From positions 1 to 12,422 of IMG/VR virus record IMGVR_UViG_2619619131_000008: DNA of 12,422 nt. One strand, given 5' to 3'. Below are positions 1-12,422 of this stretch, piece by piece. The stretch's first letter is position 1; every line of letters starts with the position of its first letter. A program made the translations under genes and the position numbers. The stretch is from a virus. Its lineage: Duplodnaviria; Heunggongvirae; Uroviricota; Caudoviricetes. A model generated the notes under the pieces. It was given only the letters and a program-made list of their open reading frames with translations, ran no database searches and was not told the origin of the DNA.

Positions 1-312
1 AGGCTCCGGAAGACGGTTGTTGCGCACGTATTCGGTGAACGCACTATGGCGACGCTGGGGCGTCTTATGAGCCTGCTGTCACCCTTTGACGTGGTGATAT
101 GGATGACGGATGGCTGGCCGCTGTATGAATCCCGCCTGAAGGGAAAGCTGCACGTAATCAGCAAGCGATATACGCAGCGAATTGAGCGGCATAACCTGAA
201 TCTGAGGCAGCACCTGGCACGGCTGGGACGGAAGTCGCTGTCGTTCTCAAAATCGGTGGAGCTGCATGACAAAGTCATCGGGCATTATCTGAACATAAAA
301 CACTATCAATAA
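1..312 (+). CDS. insB: IS1 transposase InsB, C-terminal part (5'-truncated by window edge)
   Basis: Frame 1 is open from position 1 to TAA at 310-312. Translation [48 protein letters not shown]… matches recalled InsB. Confidence 0.85.
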
Positions 313-327
313 GTTGGAGTCATTACC
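1..327 (+). mobile_element. IS1 insertion sequence, 3' portion (5' part lies outside the window); right terminal inverted repeat ends at about 327
   Basis: Window starts inside a sequence I recognise as IS1 (…CTCCGGAAGACGGTTGTTGCGCACGTATTCGGTGAACGCACTATGGCGACG…). ORF translates to the InsB C-terminus (…HYLNIKHYQ). Characteristic IS1 end …CACTATCAATAAGTTGGAGTCATTACC at 301-327. Confidence 0.9.
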
Positions 328-392
328 TCCAAATCTGAATAATTAAGTTCAGCACTGTAAATAAAATTTAATCCTTAACTGGAGGTATATCT

Positions 393-605
393 ATGTCAAA
401 TACACAGAAAATTATTAACACTGAAAAATATAACGAGTGGGTGAAAAAATTCTCTGAACAGATTTTTAAAATTACTGGCGACGAGAATGTGGCAAAAAAT
501 GAATTAGAACCGTGGACACCTGAAGGAAACGCACCAAATTATTGCTGGTGGGAGGTTGATCCGGTTGATGCTGCAAATGAAGCCATGAGTTACCACAACG
601 ATTAA
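393..605 (+). CDS. hypothetical 70-aa protein (AT-rich moron gene)
   Basis: ATG at 393 preceded by GGAGG (381-385) at good spacing. Visibly AT-rich sequence immediately after the IS1 end. No recognisable family. Confidence 0.5.
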   Translation: MSNTQKIINTEKYNEWVKKFSEQIFKITGDENVAKNELEPWTPEGNAPNYCWWEVDPVDAANEAMSYHND

Positions 606-615
606 TGTCGGGAGG

Positions 616-631
616 CCGCCCGAAAGGGCGG
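616..631 (+). other. intergenic GNRA-tetraloop stem-loop (CCGCCC-GAAA-GGGCGG), not followed by a U-tract
   Basis: Perfect 6-bp GC-rich stem with GAAA loop between the stop at 605 and the ATG at 638. No downstream T-run, so it is not a canonical intrinsic terminator. Confidence 0.5.
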
Positions 632-637
632 TAAGAA

Positions 638-856
638 ATGACTACATTATTCAGAAAAGAATATCCGCAAAAAAGTAGAGCGACAGAATTTTTGTTTCTC
701 ATTCTGTTTATCGTATTGATGATACCGATATCCCCTCTAATTTTTGTCTGGGCAATCGGGAAAATAATTGAGCCAGTTACTGAATTGTATACCGACGTTG
801 TATGGGCGTCGTTCAACACACTGCACAATAAAATTAATCCGTATAAGGAAAACTGA
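638..856 (+). CDS. hypothetical small membrane protein (72 aa, one predicted TM helix: FLFLILFIVLMIPISPLIFVWAIG)
   Basis: ORF in the same AT-rich island with a long hydrophobic segment. Weak RBS. Stop TGA 854-856 is directly followed by the next start at 858. Confidence 0.45.
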   Translation: MTTLFRKEYPQKSRATEFLFLILFIVLMIPISPLIFVWAIGKIIEPVTELYTDVVWASFNTLHNKINPYKEN

Positions 857-857
857 T

Positions 858-1121
858 ATGGCAACTTTGACAAAAAAAGAACGGGCATGGTTGAACGAAT
901 TACAGGAAGTTCTTGATCGCTGTCCATCACCGAAAAAAATTGGCTTTTACACCATTGGCGATAAAAGCATTTACCTGTATGACCTACGTCGCATGGATGA
1001 AATCATGGAGGCTCTTGATAATCGTTCGTCGATGGATTGGTGTGTTGCTGTTCATGATATGAATGCAGGGTTTGATGAAAAGATTTTGTTCCCCTCATCA
1101 GTTGAAAGCACTGCGGGTTAA
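858..1121 (+). CDS. hypothetical phage protein (87 aa)
   Basis: ATG at 858 preceded by AAGGAAAA. The longer ORF-track form (768..1121) would overlap the upstream gene and was not used. No family recognised. Confidence 0.55.
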   Translation: MATLTKKERAWLNELQEVLDRCPSPKKIGFYTIGDKSIYLYDLRRMDEIMEALDNRSSMDWCVAVHDMNAGFDEKILFPSSVESTAG

Positions 1122-1131
1122 GGAGTAACAC

Positions 1132-1299
1132 ATGACCACTATTACCAAAGAACGTATTGAATTGTTCATTAAAAACCCGCTTGAAAACGGGCTTACCCGT
1201 GGTGAACAAATGGAACTGGCACGGATTGCGCTGGCATCGCTGGAAGCAGAGCCGGTTGTGTTCTGGTTTGAAAAATATCAAGAAGGGGCTACGGCATGA
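1132..1299 (+). CDS. hypothetical small protein (55 aa), paralogous to the next gene
   Basis: Absent from the ORF track (<60 aa). ATG at 1132 with AGGAG at 1121-1125. Translation [55 protein letters not shown]. Stop overlaps the next start (ATGA at 1296-1299). Confidence 0.5.
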
Positions 1300-1541
1300 C
1301 GACTTTTACCAGAGAGCAGTTAATAGCTCACGCAGAGGAGACTATTGAAGCACAGAGACTGTGCATACCGGGCACAATCGACCATGACATCATCCGCACA
1401 TATAAGATGGATATTGCTGTTCTGGAAATCGCACTGGTATCGCTGGCAGCAGAGCCAGCCGGTAAATTGCATGAATACAAACCAGTGGGATATCAGCGTC
1501 TGGTCGATGAGTTAACCATGCTGGTAAAGCAGTTAACCTAG
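1296..1541 (+). CDS. hypothetical small protein (81 aa), paralogous to the previous gene
   Basis: Starts MTTFTREQ… (compare MTTITKER…) and contains [10 protein letters not shown] (compare [10 protein letters not shown]). Translationally coupled to the upstream ORF. Confidence 0.55.
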
Positions 1542-1636
1542 CAACTGAGGAAAGCGAAGCCAGACTGCAAATTACCGGATAAGGCGATGAGTTATCTGGA
1601 GCGGAACGGACTGATAAGCGTGGAGGATATTTTACG

Positions 1637-1720
1637 ATGACCTGGCCTGAAGCATTAACAACGGTAGGAATTGCGATGGCGGTGGCGCTGGTGGTGTATT
1701 CGATTTGCCGCTGGGGATAA
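1637..1720 (+). CDS. possible 27-aa hydrophobic peptide (MTWPEALTTVGIAMAVALVVYSICRWG), coupled to a 17-aa upstream ORF (1587-1640)
   Basis: GGAGG at 1622-1626 precedes the ATG at 1637. ATGA overlap with the tiny upstream ORF. Single hydrophobic helix. Below ORF-track size; speculative. Confidence 0.25.
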   Translation: MTWPEALTTVGIAMAVALVVYSICRWG

Positions 1721-1889
1721 AAACGGTTTGCGGGAAAAGGAGAGTTAAGTAGAATTGCAGCGGGTGCTTGAGGCTATCTGTCTCAGGCATGAACACCAAA
1801 AGGCAGATAGAGAAAAGCCCCAGTTAACATTACGCGTCCGGCAAGACGCTTAACATTAATCTGAGGCCATATCTATGCTCTACACACGT

Positions 1890-1918
1890 AGGTTAGCCTC
1901 TTACGTGCCGAAAGGCAA
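1890..1918 (-). promoter_or_regulatory. candidate Sok-like antisense promoter (minus strand: TTGCCT - 17 bp - TAACCT) directing transcription across the upstream in-frame ATG of the hok ORF
   Basis: Hexamers read from the reverse complement. Position and orientation match the canonical hok/sok layout. Not verified. Confidence 0.3.
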
Positions 1919-1931
1919 GGAGAAGCAGGCT

Positions 1932-2087
1932 ATGAAGCAGCAAAAGGCGATGCTAATCGCCCTGATCGTCATCTGTTTAACCGTCATTGTGACGGCACTG
2001 GTAACGAGGAAAGACCTCTGCGAGGTACGAATCCGAACCGGCCAGACGGAGGTCGCTGTCTTCACAGCTTACGAACCTGAGGAGTAA
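1932..2087 (+). CDS. hokD: Hok/Gef family type I toxin (51 aa), HokD/RelF-like
   Basis: Translation MKQQKAMLIALIVICLTVIVTALVTRKDLCEVRIRTGQTEVAVFTAYEPEE matches the Hok family signature (TM helix, conserved Cys, C-terminal periplasmic tail). AAGGAG at 1916-1921. An in-frame upstream ATG at 1875 could give a 70-aa form. Confidence 0.85.
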   Translation: MKQQKAMLIALIVICLTVIVTALVTRKDLCEVRIRTGQTEVAVFTAYEPEE

Positions 2088-2155
2088 GAGACCTGGCGGG
2101 GGAGAAATCCCTCGCCACCTCTGATGTGTCAGGCATCCTCAACGCACCCGCACTT

Positions 2156-2182
2156 AACCCGCTTCGGCGGGTTTTGTTTTTT
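2156..2182 (+). terminator. rho-independent terminator downstream of hok (AACCCGC-TTCG-GCGGGTT followed by a T-run)
   Basis: GC stem-loop followed by TTTGTTTTTT, seen directly. Confidence 0.6.
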
Positions 2183-2254
2183 CCTGGCATTCTGGTTTAC
2201 AATTCGCACGTCAGCCTGAACACCTGACACCTGCTGCGCCAGCAGAGAAAACAG

Positions 2255-2527
2255 ATGGCGCACAAAACCAAATTTCACAATTCTGATACCGACCTTGCCA
2301 TCCGGCATGAGCGGCGTTCACACGCATTTAAAACCGACTGGTACCAACACCCACCATGTACTGAAGAACAGGCCGAATGGCTGATTCATTCTTACCGCAG
2401 GCGCGGGTTCGAGGTTAAGAAAGCTCTCAGCCTCGATTATCGTCACTGGATAATCTCCGTCAGGCTTCCTTACTCTGAACGCCCACCGCGTCCGTCCCGC
2501 ACATTCCAGCAACGCATCTGGAGGTAA
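2255..2527 (+). CDS. hypothetical protein (90 aa) in the position occupied by rem in the Qin prophage
   Basis: ORF between hokD and the ydfU-like gene. Weak RBS. Synteny only; the K-12 Rem sequence is not recalled well enough to confirm. Confidence 0.45.
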   Translation: MAHKTKFHNSDTDLAIRHERRSHAFKTDWYQHPPCTEEQAEWLIHSYRRRGFEVKKALSLDYRHWIISVRLPYSERPPRPSRTFQQRIWR

Positions 2528-2528
2528 C

Positions 2529-3578
2529 GTGCGGGTATTACTTCGACCTGTTCTGGTACCGGAACTCGGGCTGGTGATCGTTAAGCCGGGCCGTGAATCC
2601 ATGCCGGTATTCCACAATACCCGGGTACTGGTGGAGCCGGAACCGAAAAGCATGCGTAATCTGTCGTCCGGGGTCGTTCCTGCCGTTCGCCAGCCGCTGG
2701 CGGAGGATAAATCATTACTGCCATTTTTCAGCGACGAACGAGTGATTCGTGCTGCTGGTGGCGCTGGCGCATTGTCTGACTGGTTACTGCGCCATGTTAA
2801 ATCCTGCCAGTGGCCACACGGCGATTATCACCACAGTGAAACCGTCATTCACCGTTATGGTACCGGCGCAATGGTGTTGTGCTGGCACTGCGACAACCAG
2901 TTGCGTGACCAGACCTCCGAATCACTTGAGCAACTTGCTCACCAAAACCTGTCAGCATGGATGATTGACGTCATTCGTCACGCAATGAATGGCACACAGG
3001 AGCGTGAATTATCGCTGGCTGAATTATCCTGGTGGGCGGCCTGCAATCAGGTGGTGGATGCACTACCTGAGGCAGTAGCGCGTCGTTCGCTGGGATTACC
3101 AGCGGAAAAAATCCGCTCCGTATACCGTGAGAGTGACATCGTACCGGGAGAACAGACAGCCATCAGCATACTGAAGCAGCGCACAAAAAATATTGCGCTG
3201 CCACTTCACGTCCACCAGCAACAAAATCCACCACAGGAAAAGACGGTGGTCAGCATTGCCGTTGATCCGGAGTCTCCGGAATCCTTCATGAAACGACCTA
3301 AACGTCGCCGCTGGGTTAACGAGAAATACACGCGCTGGGTGAAGACACAGCCGTGTGCGTGTTGTGGTAAGCCAGCCGACGATCCCCATCACCTGATTGG
3401 TCATGGTCAGGGCGGAATGGGGACAAAATCTCACGATATTTTCACGCTACCGCTGTGTCGGGAGCATCACAACGAGCTTCATGCGGATCCGCTGGCGTTC
3501 GAAGAAAAGCATGGCTCTCAGGTTGATTTAATTTTTCGTTTTCTTGATCACGCCTTTGCAACCGGCGTGCTCGGGTAA
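2529..3578 (+). CDS. ydfU: DUF968/YdfU-family lambdoid prophage protein with C-terminal HNH-like zinc-binding motif (CACCGKPADDPHH … CREHHNELH)
   Basis: 349-aa ORF from GTG at 2529 (GGAGG at 2520-2524). Strong resemblance to recalled Qin YdfU (MRVLLRPVLVPELGL…). Synteny hokD-rem-ydfU-Q. Confidence 0.8.
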   Translation: MRVLLRPVLVPELGLVIVKPGRESMPVFHNTRVLVEPEPKSMRNLSSGVVPAVRQPLAEDKSLLPFFSDERVIRAAGGAGALSDWLLRHVKSCQWPHGDYHHSETVIHRYGTGAMVLCWHCDNQLRDQTSESLEQLAHQNLSAWMIDVIRHAMNGTQERELSLAELSWWAACNQVVDALPEAVARRSLGLPAEKIRSVYRESDIVPGEQTAISILKQRTKNIALPLHVHQQQNPPQEKTVVSIAVDPESPESFMKRPKRRRWVNEKYTRWVKTQPCACCGKPADDPHHLIGHGQGGMGTKSHDIFTLPLCREHHNELHADPLAFEEKHGSQVDLIFRFLDHAFATGVLG

Positions 3579-3590
3579 AAGAGGTTACTG

Positions 3591-3965
3591 ATGCGTATAG
3601 AGTTTGTTTTGCCTTACCCGCCGACGGTGAACACCTACTGGCGACGTCGTGGCAGCACATATTTTGTATCAAAAGCCGGTGAGCGTTATCGCCGGGCTGT
3701 GGCGCTTATTGTTCGCCAGCAGCGGCTGAAATTAAGCCTGTCCGGAAGGCTGGCGATAAAGATTATTGCCGCGCCACCGGATAAGCGCCGCCGTGACCTG
3801 GACAATATTCTGAAAGCGCCGCTGGATGCGCTGACGCATGCGGGGTTGCTAATGGACGATGAGCAGTTTGATGAAATCAATATCGTTCGTGCTCAGCCAG
3901 TATCTGGTGGACGTCTGGGGGTGAAGATTTACCCCATAATGCTTGCAGGGCAGGTCAAAAAATGA
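3591..3965 (+). CDS. rusA: RusA-family Holliday junction resolvase
   Basis: 124 aa. RusA-like motifs (YPPTVNTYW near the N-terminus, RRRDLDN acidic catalytic motif). AAGAGG RBS. Typical nin-region position just upstream of Q. Confidence 0.85.
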   Translation: MRIEFVLPYPPTVNTYWRRRGSTYFVSKAGERYRRAVALIVRQQRLKLSLSGRLAIKIIAAPPDKRRRDLDNILKAPLDALTHAGLLMDDEQFDEINIVRAQPVSGGRLGVKIYPIMLAGQVKK

Positions 3966-4783
3966 AACTGGAAGATTTACCGAAATACTACTCCCCAAAA
4001 TCCCCCGGCCTGACTGATGCATCGGCCTCAACGTCGAAAGATGCGCTGAGTATCACTGATGTGATGGCCGCGCAGGGCATGACACAGAATCGGGCTGAGA
4101 TGGGGTTTTCTGCGTTCCTTGGTAAAATGGGCATTAGTATGAATGACAGAGAGCGGGCAACAGAATTGCTGACAGAATATGCACTCAGTCGGTGTGATCG
4201 CGTGGCGGCGTTAAGAAAACTCCCGGCAGAAATAAAACCGGTAGTGATGCGCATTATGGCTTCGTACGCTTTTGAGGATTATGCCCGTAGCGCAGCGAGT
4301 AAAAAACAGTGCCCCTGCTGTCACGGAAAAAAATTTATTGAAAGCGAGGTTTTTACAAACAAGATCCAGTATCCGGATGGTAAGCCGCCGGTATGGGCAA
4401 AGTGTACGAAAGGTGTGTATCCGTCTTACTGGGAAGAATGGAAAAAAGTCAGGGAGGTGGTAAAAGTTGCCTGTCCGGAGTGTGGCGGAAAGGGTGAGGT
4501 TTCCACCGCCTGTAAGGATTGCCGTGGGCGTGGTGTCGCCATTCATCGTGAAGAGTCGGTAAAACGTGGTATGCCTGTTATCAGAGACTGCCAGCGTTGT
4601 GGTGGTCGTGGCTGTGAAAGACTACCATCAACGGAGGCATTTAATGCCATATGCAAAGTGACGAGTGCTATCACGCTTGATACGTGGAAAAAATCAGTGA
4701 AACGCTTTTACGATACGTTGGTGGTTCGGTTTGACATTGAAGAGGCATGGGCGGAGCGGCAGTTAAAGAGGGTAACGCGATAG
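3962..4783 (+). CDS. putative late-gene antiterminator (Q-like, QuuQ/YdfT-like) with four DnaJ-type CxxCxGxG zinc-finger repeats
   Basis: 273-aa ORF coupled to rusA (ATGA overlap). Sits immediately upstream of a lambda-like pR' promoter and tR' terminator. Contains CPCCHGKK, CPECGGKG, CKDCRGRG, CQRCGGRG. Assignment rests on synteny and recalled Qin organisation. Confidence 0.6.
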   Translation: MKLEDLPKYYSPKSPGLTDASASTSKDALSITDVMAAQGMTQNRAEMGFSAFLGKMGISMNDRERATELLTEYALSRCDRVAALRKLPAEIKPVVMRIMASYAFEDYARSAASKKQCPCCHGKKFIESEVFTNKIQYPDGKPPVWAKCTKGVYPSYWEEWKKVREVVKVACPECGGKGEVSTACKDCRGRGVAIHREESVKRGMPVIRDCQRCGGRGCERLPSTEAFNAICKVTSAITLDTWKKSVKRFYDTLVVRFDIEEAWAERQLKRVTR

Positions 4784-4788
4784 TGTTG

Positions 4789-4828
4789 TTGATTTTTCCC
4801 GAATCTGTGGTAAATTCGCTCTAACGAT
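4789..4828 (+). promoter_or_regulatory. pR'-like late promoter (-35 TTGATT, extended -10 TGgTAAATT) with downstream AACGAT pause-like element (putative Q engagement region)
   Basis: The -10 hexamer TAAATT and the downstream …AACGATGGG… closely resemble the lambda pR' region as recalled. Located 6 bp after the Q-like stop. Confidence 0.6.
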
Positions 4829-4865
4829 GGGCGTTTTATGCCTGACGTTAGAAGATTTTTTACAC

Positions 4866-4887
4866 CCCGCCGCCTGGCGGGTTTTTT
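4866..4887 (+). terminator. tR'-like intrinsic terminator (CCCGCC-GCCT-GGCGGG + TTTTTT)
   Basis: Perfect 6-bp GC stem followed by a T6 run about 45-65 nt downstream of the pR' start region; would yield a short 6S-like leader RNA. Confidence 0.7.
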
Positions 4888-5009
4888 ATGACTGAAATCG
4901 CGTCAGTACAGTAAACGCGCTGGTGGCGGTGAATACCTGTCTTTCAGCTTGCTGGCTTTTTCGACAAGAGTTATTGGTGTGTCACGTTAACCGGAAAAGG
5001 GAAAAAGAC

Positions 5010-5207
5010 ATGCTAAAACAGCAGGATATGACAGAAACCGCCAGAGTAGTGTTTAATGAATTAAGCGTTACCGAACCGGCGACAGTCGGGGAGATTGCAC
5101 AGAATACTTACCTTTCACGCGAACGCTGCCAGTTAATACTGACCCAGCTGGTTATGGCGGGTCTGGCAGACTATCAGTGCGGTTGTTACAGACGCCTTCA
5201 GTCCTGA
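5010..5207 (+). CDS. hypothetical 65-aa protein, possibly a small helix-turn-helix DNA-binding protein
   Basis: ATG at 5010 preceded by AAAAGGGAAAAAG. Segment TVGEIAQNTYLSRERCQLILTQLVMAGL resembles an HTH. Start chosen over the longer 4923 form. Confidence 0.45.
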   Translation: MLKQQDMTETARVVFNELSVTEPATVGEIAQNTYLSRERCQLILTQLVMAGLADYQCGCYRRLQS

Positions 5208-5220
5208 AGGCTTTTTATTT
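5193..5220 (+). terminator. rho-independent terminator (GCCTTCAG…CTGAAGGC + TTTTTATTT) overlapping the stop of the 65-aa gene
   Basis: Near-perfect 8-bp inverted repeat followed by a T-rich run. Confidence 0.5.
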
Positions 5221-5274
5221 GTGGTGAATGGGCGGCTGGTGGGGGGCGACACCTGTCAGTCCTTTGCTTATGTG

Positions 5275-5305
5275 TTGATGATAATTTACCTTTTGGGGCT
5301 ATAAT
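5275..5305 (+). promoter_or_regulatory. candidate sigma70 promoter for the AraC-family gene (-35 TTGATG, -10 TATAAT)
   Basis: Consensus TATAAT at 5300-5305. The -35 spacing is slightly long (about 19 bp), so uncertain. Confidence 0.35.
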
Positions 5306-5340
5306 TGAGCTAACCAATTGCTAATGAAAGTAAAATTATA

Positions 5341-6054
5341 ATGGCTGTTGTCTGTTCAGTTATCATGGTTTGCTCCCCAATTAATATTTTTCTTGAAAAG
5401 GATACGTTGTCACTTAAGCCAGGCTCAGTTGTTCTGGCCACCAAATGCATCAGGGAGCTTTTCCTTATGCATTATGGCAAAGTTAAAATTGTCGATATAA
5501 GCGAATCCGTCGTAAGTCAATATCTGGAAAGTCAGCATAAGCTGACGAGGACTCGTCTGACTGACATTCCGCTTTACCTGTTGCTGGAACCCAACAATCC
5601 TGCGTTGGCTGCGGCTTTAATTACCAGCCAGGGATTTTCCGGAGAGGCCACGGATATGTTTCTTATGATGGCCTGCCTGTCTCTGTTTGAAACAGATGAA
5701 CGGATGTCATTGTTTTTAAGTGGATGTTTATCCAGCATAAGTGCCAAAGTCAGGGCGATAATTCAGACAGATATATCAGCAAGCTGGACGCTTTGTGCGA
5801 TTGCTCTACAGTTGCATATGAGTGAGAGTTTGTTAAAGACAAAACTGAAAAATGAAGGGGGCATGTTCAGTCGCTTGTTGCTGGAAGAGCGGATGCGTGT
5901 TGCTGTAAATATGTTATGTTCCCGGCATGGATATGGACAGGCTATAGCAGAAAAATGCGGTTATTCAAGCAGGTCCTACTTTATTTCTGTATTTCACCGC
6001 TATTATGGCTTCCCGCCAGACAGATATGTATCCAGGCAAGGGCTTGATTATTGA
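5341..6054 (+). CDS. AraC/XylS-family transcriptional regulator (prophage-encoded, AppY/Psr/PatE-like class)
   Basis: 237 aa. C-terminal double-HTH signature of the AraC family (…AIAEKCGYSSRSYFISVFHRYYGFPPDRY…). N-terminus MAVVCSV… resembles prophage AppY-type regulators as recalled. Visibly AT-rich gene and upstream region. Alternative downstream starts are possible. Confidence 0.8.
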   Translation: MAVVCSVIMVCSPINIFLEKDTLSLKPGSVVLATKCIRELFLMHYGKVKIVDISESVVSQYLESQHKLTRTRLTDIPLYLLLEPNNPALAAALITSQGFSGEATDMFLMMACLSLFETDERMSLFLSGCLSSISAKVRAIIQTDISASWTLCAIALQLHMSESLLKTKLKNEGGMFSRLLLEERMRVAVNMLCSRHGYGQAIAEKCGYSSRSYFISVFHRYYGFPPDRYVSRQGLDY

Positions 6055-6082
6055 TTTTCATCTGATTATTATTTTTTGGCTC

Positions 6083-6158
6083 GGCCCTTTAGCTCAGTGG
6101 TGAGAGCGAGCGACTCATAATCGCCAGGTCGCTGGTTCAAATCCAGCAAGGGCCACCA
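6083..6158 (+). tRNA. ileZ: tRNA-Ile2 (anticodon CAU, lysidine-type; ileZ/ileX-like), with encoded CCA
   Basis: Cloverleaf readable by eye: GGCCCTT acceptor, D arm GCTCAGTGGTGAGAGC, anticodon loop CTCATAA, T arm GGTTCAAATCC, 3' CCA. Very similar to recalled E. coli ileX. Anticodon alone would also fit Met. Confidence 0.85.
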
Positions 6159-6165
6159 TCACATA

Positions 6166-6239
6166 CCGCCATTAGCTCATCAGGAAAGAGCGCCAGCCTT
6201 CGAAGCTGGTTGCGCGGAGTTCGGATCCCCGAAGGCGGT
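6166..6239 (+). tRNA. argN: tRNA-Arg-like (anticodon read as UCG; argN-like), with non-canonical stem pairs
   Basis: Acceptor CCGCCAT/AAGGCGG (one A-A mismatch), D arm GCTC…GAGC, anticodon stem-loop CCAGC-CTTCGAA-GCTGG, T arm CGGAG-TTCGGAT-CCCCG (one A-C mismatch). 3' end is TCA rather than CCA. Confidence 0.55.
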
Positions 6240-6255
6240 TCATTATCTGTATCCT

Positions 6256-6332
6256 GCGTTGTTAGCTCAGCCGGACAGAGCAATTGCCTTCTAAGCAATC
6301 GGTCACTGGTTCGAATCCAGTACAACGCGCCA
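6256..6332 (+). tRNA. argO: tRNA-Arg (anticodon UCU; argO/argU-like), with encoded CCA
   Basis: Acceptor GCGTTGT/ACAACGC, D arm GCTCAGCCGGACAGAGC, anticodon loop CTTCTAA, T arm CTGGTTCGAATCCAG, discriminator G + CCA. Confidence 0.85.
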
Positions 6333-6346
6333 GACTTATTTTTCCC

Positions 6347-6370
6347 GGCTCGCTTTTGCGGGCCTTTTTT
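6347..6370 (+). terminator. rho-independent terminator after the tRNA cluster (GGCTCGC-TTTT-GCGGGCC + TTTTTT)
   Basis: 7-bp stem with one G-U pair followed by a T6 run. Confidence 0.55.
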
Positions 6371-6502
6371 GTATCCGCGCCACGCCCGGCGCATATCAAC
6401 CACAGAGCCTTTCGGGGGTGAGCTTACGGAGTGGTCAGTGTGACTTTCTCTGTGGGCAGATCGCTCCCGGGCGTTGGCTCACCCACCCAAAGGAACGTCA
6501 CG

Positions 6503-6934
6503 ATGTTTGGTATTTTTGGTAAAAAAGCCCGCCGAGCGGCAGTGGAAATTAAAAAGTTTGAGAAACGTGATCTGGCACAGGCGGTTATTAATGCTGCCTA
6601 TCTGGTGGCCTATGCAGATGGTGAATGTGAGGCTTCAGAGAAAGCGAAGATCGAGCAGGTCTTGCGTAACCAGCCTGCGTTGTCCGCGTTTACGTCAGAA
6701 ATTAATGCGATTAGCGCAACCATTATCGGTCAGCTGGATACGAACTTTAAAATTGGTCGTCGAGCGGCGTTACGTGAGATCGAGGATGTGAAACACGATA
6801 CGCGTGAAGCGGAAGACGTGCTGGATGTGGCGGTGGCCATTGCCGAAGCAGACGGCGAAATAGAGCCGGAAGAGCGCAAGGTGCTGGAAGAGATTGCCGG
6901 TGTTCTGGGCCTTCGTCTGGAGAATCATCTGTGA
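6503..6934 (+). CDS. TerB-like domain protein (tellurite-resistance TerB / DjlA-N-like fold), 143 aa
   Basis: ATG at 6503 with AAGGAA 7 nt upstream. Two TerB-type acidic motifs (AYADGECEASEKAKIEQVL and AEADGEIEPEERKVLEEIAGVLGL). The earlier GTG at 6431 lacks an RBS. Confidence 0.65.
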   Translation: MFGIFGKKARRAAVEIKKFEKRDLAQAVINAAYLVAYADGECEASEKAKIEQVLRNQPALSAFTSEINAISATIIGQLDTNFKIGRRAALREIEDVKHDTREAEDVLDVAVAIAEADGEIEPEERKVLEEIAGVLGLRLENHL

Positions 6935-6942
6935 CGGTAAAA

Positions 6943-7104
6943 ATGCGTCTGGCTGTGGTTGCGCTCCTGCTGTTTCTGGTAGTGATGGTGGTGATGGTGG
7001 ACTTCAGCAGCCGGATAATGTCAGTGCTGGCTGACGGTGTGCTGGTGGCGGGTGTGGTGGTTGTTGCTTTCCCGTTGCTGAAAAAGAAAGCATCAGGCGA
7101 TTAG
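6943..7104 (+). CDS. possible small hydrophobic membrane peptide (53 aa: MRLAVVALLLFLVVMVVMVDFSSRIMSVLADGVLVAGVVVVAFPLLKKKASGD)
   Basis: Absent from the ORF track (<60 aa). Starts 9 nt after the TerB-like stop. Two hydrophobic segments and a KKK tail. Weak RBS; contains a 9-bp tandem repeat GTGATGGTG x2. Confidence 0.35.
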   Translation: MRLAVVALLLFLVVMVVMVDFSSRIMSVLADGVLVAGVVVVAFPLLKKKASGD

Positions 7105-7344
7105 CAGGGTATCAGTTACCCGTTGAAATTTTTAAATACCTCACAATTCAGGCGGTTGACTGTTGTCTGGTTTGCGGGGAGTTTGTTAAAAGAAACTGGC
7201 ATGGTGAATCCCCCTGTGCGGAGGGGCAATCAGCAACTGGTGTTTTGTCACCGACCCTTATCCTTTCTGTGCGGGTTCAGGTGCTGATACTGAACTCACC
7301 GGGAGGCACCCGGCACCATGCAAAATTGTCTACACTACCACTGT

Positions 7345-7373
7345 AAAAAGCCCCTCTCCGGAGGGGCTTTTCT
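7345..7373 (+). terminator. strong intrinsic terminator (AGCCCCTC-TCCG-GAGGGGCT + TTTCT), A-run upstream makes it potentially bidirectional
   Basis: Perfect 8-bp GC-rich stem with tetraloop, flanked by AAAAA and TTTT. Confidence 0.65.
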
Positions 7374-7378
7374 ATGGG

Positions 7379-7407
7379 CAAAAAAAAGCCCGCAGTGAGT
7401 GGCGGGC
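7379..7407 (-). terminator. intrinsic terminator oriented for the minus strand (GCCCGC…GCGGGC preceded on + by A8, i.e. followed by U8 on minus-strand RNA)
   Basis: 6-bp GC stem with 8-nt loop. The poly-A on the + strand corresponds to poly-U on a leftward transcript. Confidence 0.45.
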
Positions 7408-7471
7408 GGGGCGCATGAATATACATCAGGTATTTTTATTATCGTGTTCTGATTTTTACCATCTGTGATAA

Positions 7472-7502
7472 GGCTGCGCAACTGCGCGGCCTTTTTCGTT
7501 TT
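7472..7502 (+). terminator. intrinsic terminator (GGCTGCGC-AACT-GCGCGGCC + TTTTTCGTTTT)
   Basis: 8-bp stem with one G-U pair followed by a T-rich run, about 90 bp upstream of the nanS-p-like start. Confidence 0.55.
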
Positions 7503-7590
7503 GCGGGCTGCGGTTCTCCTCTTTTGATTCTCCGTGTAGCCGGACCGTGGCCCGCAACTGTTGAGGAAAATCCCGGAAAGGGGAGGAATA

Positions 7591-9534
7591 ATGGCATTTA
7601 AACACTATGACGTGGTCAGGGCGGCGTCGCCGTCAGACCTTGCGGAGCGACTGACACAAAAACTGAAGGAAGGCTGGCAGCCGTTTGGCAGTCCTGTGGC
7701 TATCACGCCTTATACACTGATGCAGGCCATTGCCGCAGAGGGTGATGTGACCACGCCTGTGGTTGTGCCCGACACAGGGGCTGGTGGCTCTCCGGGAGTG
7801 GCTACCACTGAACCGGAGTATTACTACGTTATTCCCCTGGCCGGGCAGTCGAACGGTATGGCCTATGGTGAGGGGCTTCCTCTGCCGGAGACCTATGATC
7901 GCCCTGACTCCCGTATTAAGCAGCTGGCCCGTCGCAGCACTGTGACGCCGGGTGGTGATACCTGTGCATACAATGACGTTATTCCGGCAGACCACTGTCT
8001 GCATGATGTTCAGGACATGAGCGCACTTAACCATCCTCATGCAGACCTGAGTAAGGGCCAGTACGGGACTGTCGGTCAGGGGCTGCATATTGCCAAAAAA
8101 CTTCTGCCTTATATCCCGCAGAATGCCGGGATTCTTCTGGTGCCCTGTTGCCGTGGCGGGTCTGGTTTAACCGTGGGTAATGACGGCACGTTCAGCGAAA
8201 CGTCTGGCGCATCGGCAAATTCAGCCCGCTGGGGAGTGGGTAAACCGCTGTATCAGGATTTTCTCTTCCGTACAAAAGCGGCGCTGTCGAAGAACCCGAA
8301 AAACAGGCTTCTGGCCGTGGTATGGATGCAGGGGGAAAATGATCTTGCGGACGGCAGTCAGCAGCACAGCGGCCTGTTTACCACTATGGTGCAGCAGTTC
8401 AGGGCTGATATGGCTGCATATTCTGCACAGTGTGTTGGCGGAAGTGCTGGCTCGGTGCCGTGGATTTGTGGTGACACCACGTATTACTGGAAGAATCTTA
8501 ACGCCGATAAATATGAGGCGGTATATGGCGGTTACAAGGGCAGGGAAGCACAGAATATTTTCTTTGTACCGTTCCTGACGGATGAGAATGGACAGAGCAC
8601 GCCAACGAATGCTCCGGCGGAAGACCCGGATATTGTGGCTGTCGGGTATTACGGTGCAGCATCCCGAACCCAGGGCAGTTTTGTTTCGACACAGCGTGAC
8701 AGCCATTTCAGCTCATGGGCACGCAGGGGCGTCATTTCAGACCGTCTGGCCTCAGCTATTATGCTCCATGCAGGGCGCACGGCTGAATTGATGCGCGGGC
8801 AGACCGTGACACCACCGGATGAGAAGCCGTCACCTGATACACCATCAAAACCGTCCACGCCACCCGCAGACACCACGACGATGAGTACGCTATTTGCTTA
8901 CCGGGCATCTGAGTCTGAAGGACGGTTGACACCACAGGGTTGGGCTGCTGGAGGTGGCAAGGCTCAAATCGTGGATGATGCCGGAGCCAGCGGGGGTAAG
9001 GCAATGAAACTGACCAAGGAAACAGGAAGAGCCCCCTGGTACCTTGAGCATGATGCTGGTAATGGTGCGGACCTGCTGGGTAAAGGTGGTCTTGTCAGTT
9101 GTCGTTTTAAACTCGATGGCGCGCTTACGGCTAATCAGTACGCACTGGCGCTGTACTGGCCGGTTTCTTCATTGCCTCAGGGTGTCACACTGGAAGGTAA
9201 TGCCGGTAACAATCTGCTGGCGTCGTTTTACGTACAGAGCGATGCCACAGACCTCAACGTGATGTACCACAAGGGTAACGCTGACCAGAACACGAAGCTG
9301 GGGTCATTCGGCGCATTTAATAACGAATGGCATACGCTGGGCTTCCGTTTTGCCGGTAATAACAGTATTCAGGTGACGCCGGTGATTGATGGTCAGGATG
9401 GTGCACCGTTCATGCTGTCGCAGTCTCCGGTAGGTTCTTTTGCGGCAGACAAATTACGTGTAACGGATATCACAAAAGCGGCGACGTATACGGTGCTGAT
9501 TGAAAGTATAACAGTGGAAGTGAATAACCCGTAA
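7591..9534 (+). CDS. nanS: NanS-p-like prophage 9-O-acetyl sialic acid esterase (N-terminal DUF1737, SGNH/SASA esterase core with GQSN motif, C-terminal beta-rich domain)
   Basis: 647 aa from ATG 7591 (AAGGGGAGGA RBS). N-terminus MAFKHYDVVRAASPSDLAERL… is DUF1737-like. IPLAGQSNGMAYGEG carries the SGNH catalytic Ser block. Pro/Ser/Thr-rich linker (TPPDEKPSPDTPSKPSTPP). Same position as yjhS/nanS-p downstream of the toxin site in Stx phages. Confidence 0.8.
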   Translation: MAFKHYDVVRAASPSDLAERLTQKLKEGWQPFGSPVAITPYTLMQAIAAEGDVTTPVVVPDTGAGGSPGVATTEPEYYYVIPLAGQSNGMAYGEGLPLPETYDRPDSRIKQLARRSTVTPGGDTCAYNDVIPADHCLHDVQDMSALNHPHADLSKGQYGTVGQGLHIAKKLLPYIPQNAGILLVPCCRGGSGLTVGNDGTFSETSGASANSARWGVGKPLYQDFLFRTKAALSKNPKNRLLAVVWMQGENDLADGSQQHSGLFTTMVQQFRADMAAYSAQCVGGSAGSVPWICGDTTYYWKNLNADKYEAVYGGYKGREAQNIFFVPFLTDENGQSTPTNAPAEDPDIVAVGYYGAASRTQGSFVSTQRDSHFSSWARRGVISDRLASAIMLHAGRTAELMRGQTVTPPDEKPSPDTPSKPSTPPADTTTMSTLFAYRASESEGRLTPQGWAAGGGKAQIVDDAGASGGKAMKLTKETGRAPWYLEHDAGNGADLLGKGGLVSCRFKLDGALTANQYALALYWPVSSLPQGVTLEGNAGNNLLASFYVQSDATDLNVMYHKGNADQNTKLGSFGAFNNEWHTLGFRFAGNNSIQVTPVIDGQDGAPFMLSQSPVGSFAADKLRVTDITKAATYTVLIESITVEVNNP

Positions 9535-9682
9535 GCAGGAAAAAAAGACCGCCGTGGCAGGGAAAACAAGGAGCCAGAACCGGCGGCAGAAGTCGCTACA
9601 TCCTTAGCAAAAATATGCTGAGCAAAAAATGCAGGAGTTTTTTACTGGCAGGCATTGACCATGTCAATAATGGAGATGAATA

Positions 9683-9865
9683 ATGACATTTTTACAGCTG
9701 ATTATGTTGTATTTCTGTACAGCAGTTTGTGTGCTGTATCTTCTTTCTGGTGGGTACAGAGTCGTGAGAGATTTCTGGCGCAGGCAGATTGACAAAAGGG
9801 CCGCTGAGAAAATCAGTGCCAGTCAGTCAGCCGGAACAAAACCCGAAGAGCCTCTCATTCCGTAG
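9683..9865 (+). CDS. hypothetical small membrane protein (60 aa)
   Basis: ATG with GGAG upstream. N-terminal hydrophobic helix (LQLIMLYFCTAVCVLYLLSGG). Confidence 0.45.
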   Translation: MTFLQLIMLYFCTAVCVLYLLSGGYRVVRDFWRRQIDKRAAEKISASQSAGTKPEEPLIP

Positions 9866-9902
9866 CAACTTTCTTAACAACACCTTTCAACGAGAAAATA
9901 CC

Positions 9903-10172
9903 ATGTCAGAAATAAAATCGCTGGTCACTGCTGAAGCAGTGAAGGAAGTCCTGCGCTCTGAAGAAGTCAGAAGCGCACTGAAACAGCAACTTCGGCAGAA
10001 CCTTGAGGCGCGTCTTGATGCAGAAGTGGATGCCATTCTGGATGAACTGCTGGGCGCACCGACTGTTCCGGAGCCGGAAGGCATTGCGGATGACAGTGCT
10101 GTTTCAGATGGCGTCGGGTCTCAGCCTGATGGTAGCAGTGAGCCTCAGCCTGACGGCGAAATGATGATGTAA
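9903..10172 (+). CDS. hypothetical acidic protein (89 aa) with C-terminal low-complexity SQPDG/EPQPDG repeat
   Basis: ATG at 9903 chosen over the upstream in-frame ATG (9789), which would overlap the previous gene. Helical N-terminal part and acidic tail. Confidence 0.5.
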   Translation: MSEIKSLVTAEAVKEVLRSEEVRSALKQQLRQNLEARLDAEVDAILDELLGAPTVPEPEGIADDSAVSDGVGSQPDGSSEPQPDGEMMM

Positions 10173-10247
10173 CCATGCGCAGGGGCTGTCGGTGTGAGCT
10201 GATGCCCCTCTTGTTGTTGTGAGCTTCCGGATTGCGGGAGACGGGGT

Positions 10248-10463
10248 ATGTACCAGATGGAAAAAATCACAACAGGTGTGTCATACACCACGTCAGCGGT
10301 GGGGACGGGCTACTGGTTCCTGCAGCTGCTGGACAGGGTTTCCCCGTCTCAGTGGGCGGCAATAGGCGTACTGGGAAGTCTGCTGTTTGGGCTGCTGACA
10401 TATCTGACTAACCTGTATTTCAAAATCAGAGAGGACCGTCGTAAGGCGGCGCGGGGAGAGTAA
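10248..10463 (+). CDS. S: class II holin, phage 21 S-type pinholin (71 aa) with possible dual-start motif (Met1/Met4)
   Basis: [71 protein letters not shown] is near-identical in the C-terminal two thirds to recalled S21. Two TMDs and a charged C-tail. Confidence 0.85.
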
Positions 10464-10467
10464 AGCG

Positions 10468-10812
10468 ATGAAGAAAAAATACGAACTGGTTGTTAAAGGG
10501 ATAAATAATTACCCGAATAAGATTACTGTTACTGTGGCACTGGAAATTGGTGGGTATCCGTCACTGTTGTTGCCAGATGTGGCGATTAGTCTTGACCGTA
10601 CTGAAGATGCCACGCTGGAGTTTTACGAAGCTGAGGCGAAAAAGCAGGCGAAGCAGTTTTTCATGGATGTTGCTGCCGGGTTATGTGAAGGGGATGGTCC
10701 GTTGCCGGAAAAGCGCCCCGTAATTTTAGAGGCGCAGGATGTGTTGATAACCTACAGAGGAAAACTACCGGGAATAATTACTGGTTCTCTGAAGACTCCA
10801 CCGCTGGCCTGA
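10468..10812 (+). CDS. hypothetical 114-aa protein inserted between pinholin and endolysin genes
   Basis: ATG at 10468 with GGAGAG RBS, 4 nt after the holin stop. No TM segment or family recognised. Confidence 0.55.
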   Translation: MKKKYELVVKGINNYPNKITVTVALEIGGYPSLLLPDVAISLDRTEDATLEFYEAEAKKQAKQFFMDVAAGLCEGDGPLPEKRPVILEAQDVLITYRGKLPGIITGSLKTPPLA

Positions 10813-10862
10813 AGACTTAACATATCCAGGGATTTGAAATCGATAAACCCTGATAAATATCC

Positions 10863-11396
10863 ATGAACACCAAAATCAAATACGGCCTGTCGGCTGCCGT
10901 TCTGGCGCTGATTGCCGCAGGTGCGCCTGCGCCTGAAATCCTCGACCAGTTTCTGGATGAAAAGGAAGGTAACCACACCACGGCATACCGTGATGGCGCG
11001 GGTATCTGGACCATCTGCCGCGGTGCCATCCTGGTGGATAGTAAACCTGTCGTCCCGGGCATGAAGTTGTCGAAGGAAAAATGCGACCAGGTCAACGCCA
11101 TTGAGCGTGATAAGGCGCTGGCATGGGTGGAGCGCAATATTAAAGTGCCGCTGACCGAACCCCAGAAAGCGGGTATCGCGTCATTTTGTCCCTATAACAT
11201 TGGCCCCGGTAAGTGTTTCCCGTCGACGTTTTACAGACGGATTAATGCTGGTGACCGCAGGGGAGCATGCGAAGCGATTCGCTGGTGGATTAAGGACGGT
11301 GGCAGAGACTGCCGTATCCGCTCAAATAATTGCTACGGTCAGGTATCCCGGCGAGACCAGGAAAGTGCGCTGGCGTGCTGGGACATCGACAGATAA
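10863..11396 (+). CDS. R: SAR endolysin (T4-lysozyme-like muramidase, R21 type) with N-terminal signal-anchor-release domain
   Basis: 177 aa. N-terminal weakly hydrophobic Gly/Ala-rich segment (GLSAAVLALIAAGAPAP). Catalytic E-x8-D-x5-T pattern (E…NHTTAYRD…GIWT). Expected partner of a pinholin. Confidence 0.8.
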   Translation: MNTKIKYGLSAAVLALIAAGAPAPEILDQFLDEKEGNHTTAYRDGAGIWTICRGAILVDSKPVVPGMKLSKEKCDQVNAIERDKALAWVERNIKVPLTEPQKAGIASFCPYNIGPGKCFPSTFYRRINAGDRRGACEAIRWWIKDGGRDCRIRSNNCYGQVSRRDQESALACWDIDR

Positions 11397-11486
11397 GCAG
11401 AATATTTTGCTGAAAAATAAGGCATGAGCACGCGGACGGATAACACGAAATCCTGCGAACTGGCGAAACGTAAGTGAATAAAAGTA

Positions 11487-11526
11487 AAAACCCCGTTTGT
11501 TGGCACCAAGCGGGGTTTTGTGTTTC
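11487..11526 (+). terminator. intrinsic terminator downstream of the endolysin gene (CCCCGTTTG…CAAGCGGGG + TTTTGTGTTT), A-run upstream
   Basis: 9-bp stem with one G-U pair and 7-nt loop followed by a T-rich run. Confidence 0.5.
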
Positions 11527-11552
11527 TGACCTTGAGTAAGGCAAGGGAGAAC

Positions 11553-11735
11553 ATGGCGAAGTATAAACGAATTCTGTTGAGGTTGACCATGAAAAACGGC
11601 CTTGAACTGAAAGCGCCTGTAACTGATGACATCAGCAGAGCACTGGCTTTTGCCATTAAGTGGGTGGCGGTCGGTGTTGCTGTGTCCCCGATGCTGTATG
11701 GGCTGGCAAAACTGGTCATTGCGTTGAAATCGTGA
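11553..11735 (+). CDS. hypothetical small protein (60 aa) with C-terminal hydrophobic helix
   Basis: ATG at 11553 with AAGGGAGA upstream (short spacing). Hydrophobic segment [22 protein letters not shown]. Function unknown. Confidence 0.35.
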
Positions 11736-11749
11736 AGGGAGGATTAAGC

Positions 11750-11881
11750 ATGTCAGACAAACTCATAACGCTGGCGAAGATCCTCTGTGTAATTGTCGGC
11801 ATTTCATTTTCACTAATGCTGGTTGCTCTTTTTCTTTCCATGGCCTGGATGATGTTGTCTTCGTCGGGGCTGCTGGGGTGA
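11750..11881 (+). CDS. hypothetical small membrane peptide (43 aa)
   Basis: Strong RBS GAAGGGAGG before ATG 11750. One TM helix ([26 protein letters not shown]). Stop overlaps the Rz start. Confidence 0.35.
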
Positions 11882-12351
11882 ACATAAACCGAATGCTTTC
11901 CGCGTTTACCGTTATTCTGCTGGTGGTCTGTGGTGCGCTGTGGCTGGCAACAGACCATTACCGTGATAACGCCATCACCTACAAAGCGCAGCGCGATAAA
12001 AAAGCCAGAGAGCTGGAGCTGGCAAACGCAACCATTACTGACATGCAGCAGCGCCAGCGTGATGTTGCTGCGCTTGATGCCAGATACTCAAGGGAATTAG
12101 CCGATGCGAGAGCTGAAAATGAAACTCTGCGTGCTGATGTTGCCGCTGGTCGTAAGCGCCTGCGGATCAACGCCACCTGCTCCGGTACCGTGCGTGAAGC
12201 CACCGGCACCTCCGGAATGGATAATGCAACCGGCCCCCGACTGGCAGACACCGCTGAACGGGATTATTTCACCCTCAGAGAGCGGTTGATGACAATGCAG
12301 AAGCAACTGGAAGGGGCGCAGGAATATATCCGCACTCAGTGTATTAACTAG
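11878..12351 (+). CDS. Rz: Rz i-spanin (inner-membrane spanin subunit)
   Basis: Strong similarity to recalled lambda Rz (…[15 protein letters not shown]…[17 protein letters not shown]…TMQKQLEG…). N-terminal TM helix. Start may be GTG 11878 or ATG 11893. Confidence 0.85.
12104..12289 (+). CDS. Rz1: Rz1 o-spanin lipoprotein, embedded in the +1 frame inside Rz
   Basis: [61 protein letters not shown]: lipobox VVSAC, Pro-rich, very similar to recalled lambda Rz1. Confidence 0.85.
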
Positions 12352-12374
12352 TATTTTTGTTATCCGGAGAATGC

Positions 12375-12422
12375 ATGAAGAAATTACTGGTAACCGTAAA
12401 GCCTTTTCAGGGAACAATTCCG
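12375..12422 (+). CDS. start of an ORF running off the window (MKKLLVTVKPFQGTIP…), unidentified
   Basis: GGAGA RBS before ATG 12375. Only 16 codons visible. Confidence 0.2.
   Translation, partial: MKKLLVTVKPFQGTIP

Follow-up and report, generated by a model that had tools for sequence, protein, structure and literature searches.

The stretch of DNA analysed here (the window) comprises positions 1 to 12,422 of the IMG/VR virus record IMGVR_UViG_2619619131_000008 (Caudoviricetes), a sequence of 12,422 nucleotides (nt) that opens with the right end of an IS1 element. We focused on the DNA adjoining this end (positions 328-856), which contains two small open reading frames (ORFs), ORF1 and ORF2, separated by a stable RNA hairpin. 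Both are routine prophage accessory ORFs and their adjacency to IS1 is incidental. They are joined by parts of a ~105-nt linker that recurs ahead of unrelated phage genes and fits two known kinds of element, boundary sequences and split ribosome-binding sites (RBSs): phages use it repeatedly as a mosaic joint, and its 3' end has the look of a portable split RBS. The features of the region are listed below.

1-327, plus strand: 3' part of IS1 (end of the insB' frame and right terminal inverted repeat GTCATTACC); Pfam DDE_Tnp_IS1.
328-392, plus strand: 5' two-thirds of the linker and leader of ORF1, 27.7% guanine plus cytosine (GC), with the first Shine-Dalgarno (SD) sequence, GGAGG, at 381-385; nhmmer match to positions 6-67 of the linker profile (E 9e-9).
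393-605, plus strand: ORF1, an acidic soluble protein of 70 amino acids (aa), phrog_4659, placed inside the linker.
606-637, plus strand: 3' third of the linker, with SD GGAGG at 611-615, hairpin G615-U632 and 5-nt spacer AAGAA; defined by recurrence of a 21-mer and by breakpoints at 608-649.
638-856, plus strand: ORF2, a 72-aa single-pass membrane protein, DUF4014 (PF13198), phrog_1832 (Pfam E 3.7e-26).
858-1121, plus strand: ORF3, 87 aa (phrog_1714), whose ATG lies 1 nt past the ORF2 stop; annotated as the next gene in IS1-free relatives.

The original prediction had described positions 328-856 as an AT-rich two-gene island, separately acquired as cargo beside IS1 and contrasting with the phage genes downstream. 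A windowed GC analysis bore out the AT-richness that begins at the IS1 end, with 37.4% GC at 328-856 compared with 51.2 ± 3.5% (minimum 41.4%) in the remaining 529-nt windows. The low GC content is real, but the block does not stop at position 856. It runs on into ORF3 (41.7% GC at 858-1121) and fades over the following two genes (46-47%). Base 856 is therefore no compositional boundary, and the AT-richness tapers off instead of marking out a sharply bounded two-gene island.

Within the IS1 part, an ORF at 46-312 encodes the C-terminal portion of the transposase (Pfam DDE_Tnp_IS1, E 5.7e-48), and the canonical right end of the element, AAGTTGGAGTCATTACC, terminates at base 327. The window covers this right end only and the left IS1 junction lies outside it. 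A megablast comparison of the segment against 5426 complete Escherichia coli genomes recovered the sequence from position 328 onward at up to 99.8% identity and never with IS1 attached. The contiguous segment is present in 400-484 of these genomes, all IS1-free, and the homology of the IS1-free relatives begins exactly at 328. The exact junction between IS1 and the linker had no match in species-representative genomes. At the insertion point an IS1-free relative reads GAAAGCATAA followed directly by TCCAAATCTG, and the IS1 of the window lies exactly between the two, 40 nt past the stop codon of the DUF977 gene. Shigella sonnei carries an identical ORF1 together with an IS1 in the same orientation and in the same spacer, located ~30 bp further downstream (locus L173, 4740-4780 and 5950-5970) and flanked by a 9-bp duplication (CAGCACTGT/CGGCACTGT). 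As the insertion sites differ between the window and S. sonnei, the AT-rich spacer has been struck by IS1 at least twice, independently. IS1 is a later, secondary and incidental insertion and not the carrier of the genes.

In three S. sonnei loci (L172, L173, and L178) the prophage is broken just past the DUF4014 gene, so that ORF1 and DUF4014 are followed by ompW and host genes. At the same loci the small ORFs, hok, DUF968, RusA, and the antiterminator lie inverted beyond an IS3-family (rve) element and an IS1. This arrangement points to an inversion mediated by insertion sequences, which the genome of the window does not share.

In an annotated IS1-free relative the gene order is LexA-like repressor, Cro, YdaT, replication protein, DUF977, followed by ORF1, DUF4014, ORF3 and two small ORFs, and then hokD, DUF968, RusA, and Q; further loci have the same gene order. 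By its gene content and order, the region 328-1121 is the start of a block of small accessory genes that corresponds to the nin region of lambda and belongs to the rightward early operon of a lambdoid prophage of Qin/Rac type. Hundreds of E. coli prophages have the identical segment free of IS1, at the same position between DUF977 and hokD/DUF968/RusA/Q, and this distribution contradicts the proposal that the genes were separately acquired as cargo at IS1. Sites that vary among the relatives fall mostly at third codon positions of the plus strand frames (9/10/25 sites at first/second/third positions in ORF1, 19/11/26 in ORF2, and 4/6/18 in ORF3), a concentration which indicates that the plus strand ORFs are real genes. 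A 152-aa ORF on the minus strand (472-930) was discarded as a candidate gene; it is unannotated in the relatives and the variation within ORF1 follows the plus strand frame.

Homologues of ORF1 and/or ORF2 are found in 933W, VT2-Sakai, ArgO145, epsilon15, ES18, and HK225 (Stx, P22-like, and epsilon15 phages). The two genes said to stand apart from the phage genes are thus phage genes themselves. They do not depend on one another for their distribution. Some phage matches span ORF1 and the hairpin only (window positions 328-638; ArgO145 and Ro157c2YLVW), and others span ORF2 only (642-860; 933W, VT2-Sakai, Min27, and many more). ORF1 and ORF2 are adjacent in just 484 of the 1056 E. coli genomes that match positions 393-856; the other genomes contain one gene only, and their partial matches begin or end at 608-649, which corresponds to the hairpin. 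Phage ArgO145 has both genes with three other genes between them, while the DUF4014 gene of 933W follows a different gene, with an overlapping stop and start codon (GGAGAGTGATGTG) and without the hairpin. These patterns show that ORF1 and DUF4014 are independent, individually shuffled phage accessory genes and not an obligate pair.

The same comparisons bear on the idea that ORF1 and ORF2 constitute a two-component module (a toxin/immunity or exclusion pair) acquired as cargo together with IS1. The adjacency of the genes in 484 genomes, the combination of one soluble with one membrane protein, and the AT-rich character of the region would all be expected of such a module. This idea is largely refuted by the distribution of the genes. 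Every complete E. coli genome examined that has the pair has it free of IS1, either gene is often found alone, and the sites of IS1 insertion differ among lineages. A search with the PADLOC defence models also gave no match for either ORF1 or ORF2. We consider this explanation highly improbable.

The prediction of a 70-aa ORF with a strong RBS was borne out, as ORF1 has an SD sequence (GGAGG, 381-385) 7 nt ahead of its ATG. ORF1 belongs to a narrow family, phrog_4659, to which an exhaustive HMMER search of 1.8 billion representatives added only two true distant relatives (P0242 and P0243); matches to giant proteins were set aside as spurious and repeat-inflated. No match was found for ORF1 in Pfam, NCBIfam, PADLOC, or PDB sequences. 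Conserved positions of ORF1 include Y13, W16, F20-S21, E37-L38-E39, W41, and D56-P57-V58-D59. Its AlphaFold model consists of three helices with a predicted local distance difference test score (pLDDT) of 75 and had no Foldseek match in PDB or BFVD.

ORF2 corresponds to the predicted 72-aa single-pass membrane protein and is a full-length member of DUF4014, aligning to positions 1-72 of the 72-position profile with 91.8 bits (cut-off 23.2). It has a single hydrophobic stretch, FLFLILFIVLMIPISPLIFVWAIG, a basic N-terminus and, in the family alignment, a conserved C-terminal motif (LHNKINPYKE). Under the positive-inside rule, the basic N-terminus predicts an N-in/C-out topology, which suggests an envelope-facing function. 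ORF2 probably acts on a target in the envelope, and our best guess as to its role, held with low confidence, is exclusion or modulation of a membrane enzyme. Homologues of DUF4014 are present in 127 phage records, including 933W L0067 and epsilon15 gp46. Database labels attached to the family include "sugar/O-polysaccharide acetyltransferase inhibitor" and "released from the phage upon host infection". The latter is carried by RefSeq records NC_000902, NC_004913, NC_010237 and others, and has entered the description of phrog_1832, but it looks like propagated text without an experimental basis. In the original epsilon15 record gp46 is a hypothetical protein, and no paper in the literature collection searched mentions DUF4014. 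Both labels are annotation text only and should not be trusted. The small O-antigen-modifying Gnarl proteins (PMC12373910) were considered, but they offer a conceptual parallel only, with no homology shown.

The sequence surrounding ORF1 recurs elsewhere. A 21-mer from the hairpin region, GGAGGCCGCCYGAAAGGGCGG, is found in more than 120 IMG/VR viral contigs, where it precedes unrelated genes. Most copies lie within an intact linker of ~105 nt with the arrangement ...CTGAATAATTAAATTTAG...AAATTTAATCCTTAACCGGAGGGATTTCTGCACCCTCAGAACATCA-GGAGG-CCGCCCGAAAGGGCGG-TA..ATG. In the window this linker is split, with ORF1 inside it. Its 5' part forms the ORF1 leader (329-392), which contains the exact motif AAATTTAATCCTTAACTGGAGG at 364-385, and its 3' part occupies positions 606-637. 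The 5'-only form of the linker stands ahead of ORF1 in 43 out of 43 cases. Intact linkers were found in 2413 of the 5426 complete E. coli genomes (44%), at up to seven places per genome. Across the sampled loci, more than 40 combinations were seen between at least eight ORF ends upstream of the linker and at least six families downstream of it, namely DUF4014, DUF7167, a Phage_antitermQ-family protein, MTELTKE-type proteins (122-277 aa), MQEIKEN-type proteins, and a 43-aa ORF. Several upstream proteins that are unrelated to one another end in the same residues (..TE* or ..PE*) because their stop codon falls within the linker, and these common C-terminal residues are the signature of junctions formed inside it.

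The exact 21-mer, GGAGGCCGCCCGAAAGGGCGG, was also found within a gene for a P2-like small terminase (locus L044, 11448-11468), where it encodes ...EAARKGG.... This occurrence is either a coincidence or an internal start signal, in a context unrelated to the linker. The terminase was dropped as a further downstream family, since the 21-mer lies inside its coding sequence.

The hairpin anticipated between the two ORFs (G615-U632, GCCGCCC-GAAA-GGGCGGU) has a 7-bp stem closed by a GAAA loop. Folded alone it has a free energy of -15.5 kcal/mol (z -3.8) and accounts for 96% of the ensemble, and it also forms in a 71-nt context (z -3.5). An outer helix predicted around it (600-608 with ~645-653) was rejected as it is not conserved where the upstream sequence differs. 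The SD sequence GGAGG (611-615) lies 22 nt from the ORF2 AUG (638) in the linear sequence, a distance that falls to 5-6 nt once the stem is formed, and the sole SD-like string nearer to the AUG (AAGG) is buried in the loop and 3' arm. The linker thus presents the anatomy of a split RBS, with an SD sequence more than 15 nt away from the start codon, no SD sequence at 5-12 nt, and a hairpin that would restore a functional spacing.

This anatomy is regular across the copies of the hairpin. In 166 of 187 copies the 3' arm is followed, at a distance of 6-11 nt (6-9 nt in 151), by the start of an ORF that is at least 30 aa long. Among these 166, the spacer holds an SD sequence of its own in nine copies and none in the other 157. 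The GGAG directly 5' of the stem is invariant over 44 distinct variants, whereas DUF4014 genes that lack the hairpin have a canonical GGAG at -12 to -8. The earlier suggestion that the hairpin might bear on translation or mRNA stability thereby gains comparative backing, from the regular distance between stem and start codon and from the canonical SD sequence of hairpin-less DUF4014 genes, which together would fit a role in initiation. Changes within the stem are mostly of one kind. C-to-U changes opposite a G in the 5' arm account for 16 alignment cells, compared with a single cell for G-to-A changes in the 3' arm. The C-to-U bias keeps pairing only in plus strand RNA and fits a plus strand RNA hairpin. 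Overall, 95.8% of cells in the hairpin alignment are paired and there is one double change.

The explanation that we favour, and think probably correct as a whole, is that the region is a lambdoid accessory block with an incidental IS1, in which shuffled genes are joined by a reused linker with a split RBS. The 3' end of the linker would act as a portable translation-initiation unit composed of a strong GGAGG, a stable hairpin, 5-10 A/U-rich nt, and a start codon. By looping out 17-18 nt, the hairpin would turn the long linear spacing between SD and AUG into an effective one of 5-6 nt and might in this way enhance translation. At the DNA level, the shared linker could supply the homology through which upstream and downstream genes recombine, making it a mosaic boundary.

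A different role for the hairpin has to be weighed against this. It could be mainly an element of mRNA stability or processing, either as a barrier to 3' exonucleases or as a protective 5' structure after cleavage, with ORF2 initiating from the A-rich leader or from a weak AAGGG. Such a role would suit a very stable, GC-rich stem with a GNRA loop placed just past the ORF1 stop codon, and the hairpin is kept in the nine copies whose downstream gene has its own SD sequence. A stabiliser, however, would not need the tight spacing of 6-11 nt between stem and start codon (166 of 187 copies) or an invariant GGAG immediately 5' of the stem, and it would not account for the canonical SD sequences on DUF4014 genes that lack the hairpin. 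Where the linker is intact, moreover, ~60-90 nt separate the hairpin from the preceding stop codon, so that it does not mark the end of a cistron. We therefore judge this explanation unlikely, although it is the strongest of the rivals considered.

Signals of transcription were also considered, namely that the hairpin is a boxB/nut-type site for an N-like antiterminator, or an intrinsic terminator. The early operon location is compatible with such a site, and the GCCC-GAAA-GGGC of the hairpin resembles the stem and GNRA-like loop of lambda boxB. On the other hand, the sequence upstream has no boxA-like CGCUCUUA, and a true tetraloop stands where a pentaloop would be expected. The hairpin is also a long way 3' of the immunity region, past the replication genes, and is repeated up to seven times per genome before start codons. 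The stem is followed by UAAGAAAUGAC, with no U-tract, and a promoter and terminator scan did not call the hairpin as a terminator on either strand and called neither signal within 328-640. An Rfam scan of positions 1-2600 (E up to 10) gave no match in 328-860, and its sole above-threshold match was sok at 1762-1937. A nut site or terminator is accordingly very improbable.

Several observations weigh against the explanation that we favour. Covariation among the 44 distinct hairpin variants is not significant, as 132-169 of 500 shuffles reach the observed values, in a sequence too conserved for covariation to be telling; the case for the structure is consequently made by its thermodynamics and anatomy and not by covariation. 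If the hairpin melts, the AAGGG of the loop and 3' arm might be used as a weak SD sequence. The direction of the relationship between ORF1 and the linker may be read in two ways: either ORF1 was inserted, or the intact linker is what a deletion of ORF1 left behind. The combinatorial flanks could come from illegitimate insertion beside a conserved element instead of homologous exchange inside it. Finally, the taxonomic range of the linker is narrow and restricted to phages of Escherichia/Shigella type, with two species representatives matched, one of them a probable contaminant, and its conservation may therefore reflect recent spread and not selection. One matching sequence (L180) is a 3-kb contig of a metagenome-assembled genome labelled "Collinsella sp." that carries the enterobacterial phage motif, and it is probably a mis-binned Escherichia phage fragment.

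Taken to its conclusion, this last concern would make the linker functionless intergenic DNA that spread recently, perhaps as the remnant of a deleted ORF1-like gene, and that is carried along with its neighbours, so that its conservation is a matter of recency. The narrow taxonomic range, the very high identity together with the non-significant covariation, and a weak resemblance of the middle of the intact linker to the ends of ORF1 (by direct reading of the sequence) are consistent with this. Neutral DNA would nonetheless require many independent junction events exactly here to produce more than 40 flank combinations with unrelated genes. It would also not be expected to keep a regular distance to the start codons of unrelated downstream genes, or to have reached 44% of complete E. 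coli genomes, many of which hold more than one copy. We consider a functionless linker distinctly improbable.

Split RBSs are known from T4, for genes 38 and 25 (Nivinskas et al. 1999; Malys and Nivinskas 2009; as reviewed in PMC3014915). According to that review, an intervening structure cuts the 22-nt SD spacing of gene 38 to 5 nt, and that of gene 25 from 27 nt to 11, with stem-destabilising mutations lowering translation of gene 25 (PMC3014915). The linker resembles these cases in that the SD sequence is too distant linearly (22 nt both here and in gene 38), a stable hairpin would reduce the distance to ~5 nt, and no SD sequence is present at the canonical distance. It differs from them in having no sequence relationship to the T4 sites and in being a portable cassette found before at least six unrelated genes of temperate lambdoid phages, where each T4 site belongs to a single gene.

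The PeSL cassettes of T4-type phages, which consist of a sigma-70 promoter and a terminator (PMC2839356, PMC4122927), provide a second comparison. Like the linker, they are short conserved intergenic motifs with a stem-loop that are repeated between small non-essential genes, and gene gain, loss, and replacement map to them. Unlike PeSLs, the linker has no detectable promoter or terminator and carries SD elements instead. At the junctions of lambdoid modules, conserved boundary sequences have been put forward as places where homologous exchange occurs (Clark et al. 2001 on HK620; Susskind and Botstein 1978; both as cited in PMC3029335). In the form in which that source cites the concept, the likeness lies in a short conserved sequence at gene boundaries of the early operon and in a proposed role as an exchange site that generates mosaics; the split-RBS anatomy and the statistics on copy number and flank combinations stem from the present analysis. 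ORF1 and ORF2 also share with phage morons the character of small AT-rich accessory genes of deviating composition between conserved phage genes. In contrast to morons, no promoter or terminator of their own was detected in the scan of this region, and they form part of the early operon, with a translational link to the genes on either side.

If our reading of the linker is correct, it would be a concrete case of lambdoid phages swapping small genes at fixed joints while keeping them translatable. The split RBS, so far described for individual genes of T4, would then also exist as a cassette that is reusable and occurs in ~44% of complete E. coli genomes, and start codons that follow the hairpin would become easier to annotate. 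A further step, which we put forward only tentatively as a possibility, is that lambdoid phages of Escherichia/Shigella have in the linker a dedicated "landing pad" that combines a portable SD-hairpin initiation unit with a site of homologous recombination. New small genes captured there could be expressed straight away and pass by exchange between the pL and pR operons. The linker would then be for temperate phages what the PeSL is for T4, acting on translation and not on transcription.

The genes that follow ORF2 belong to the same accessory block. The gene directly 3' of DUF4014 is annotated as an HNH endonuclease in several phages (g341c and HK225, and also at locus L002, 3103-3306), and it starts with MALTKK..., resembling the start of ORF3 (MATLTKKE...). 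By this similarity ORF3 may be a relative of the HNH-annotated gene or what remains of one; no HNH domain was found in ORF3 by Pfam. ORF4 (1132-1299, 55 aa) and ORF5 (1296-1541, 81 aa) both start with MTT(I/F)T(K/R)E and both match PHROGs 660, 60, 3323, and 5117, and they look like short paralogues of MTELTKEQLIEE-type proteins. Proteins of this type have a common N-terminus and variable C-termini, and are among the commonest genes 3' of the linker elsewhere.

Downstream of the Q-like antiterminator, positions 4784-10250 contain a 237-aa ORF, a 657-aa ORF, and holin/lysozyme genes. In related prophages the neighbourhood past Q contains a sialate esterase and the small RNAs (sRNAs) PasA, PasC, and PasD (bioRxiv 2026.05.13.724894). 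The Pas sRNAs were rejected as an identity for the hairpin region, as they adjoin Q and the lysis genes instead (bioRxiv 2026.05.13.724894).

A complete hok/sok type I toxin-antitoxin locus is located at 1762-2087. It comprises the Rfam sok match at 1762-1937 (117 bits, E 2e-27) and a HokD-type ORF at 1875-2087 with a 51-aa core, MKQQKAMLIALIVICLTVIVTALVTRKDLCEVRIRTGQTEVAVFTAYEPEE. Directly after hokD, and before DUF968, RusA, and Q, lies a sub-threshold Rfam match (2096-2177) to the Salmonella prophage sRNA isrK, which scored 27 bits (E 0.003) where the gathering score is 50. This isrK-like stretch ends in a good intrinsic terminator (2156-2173 followed by a T-run).

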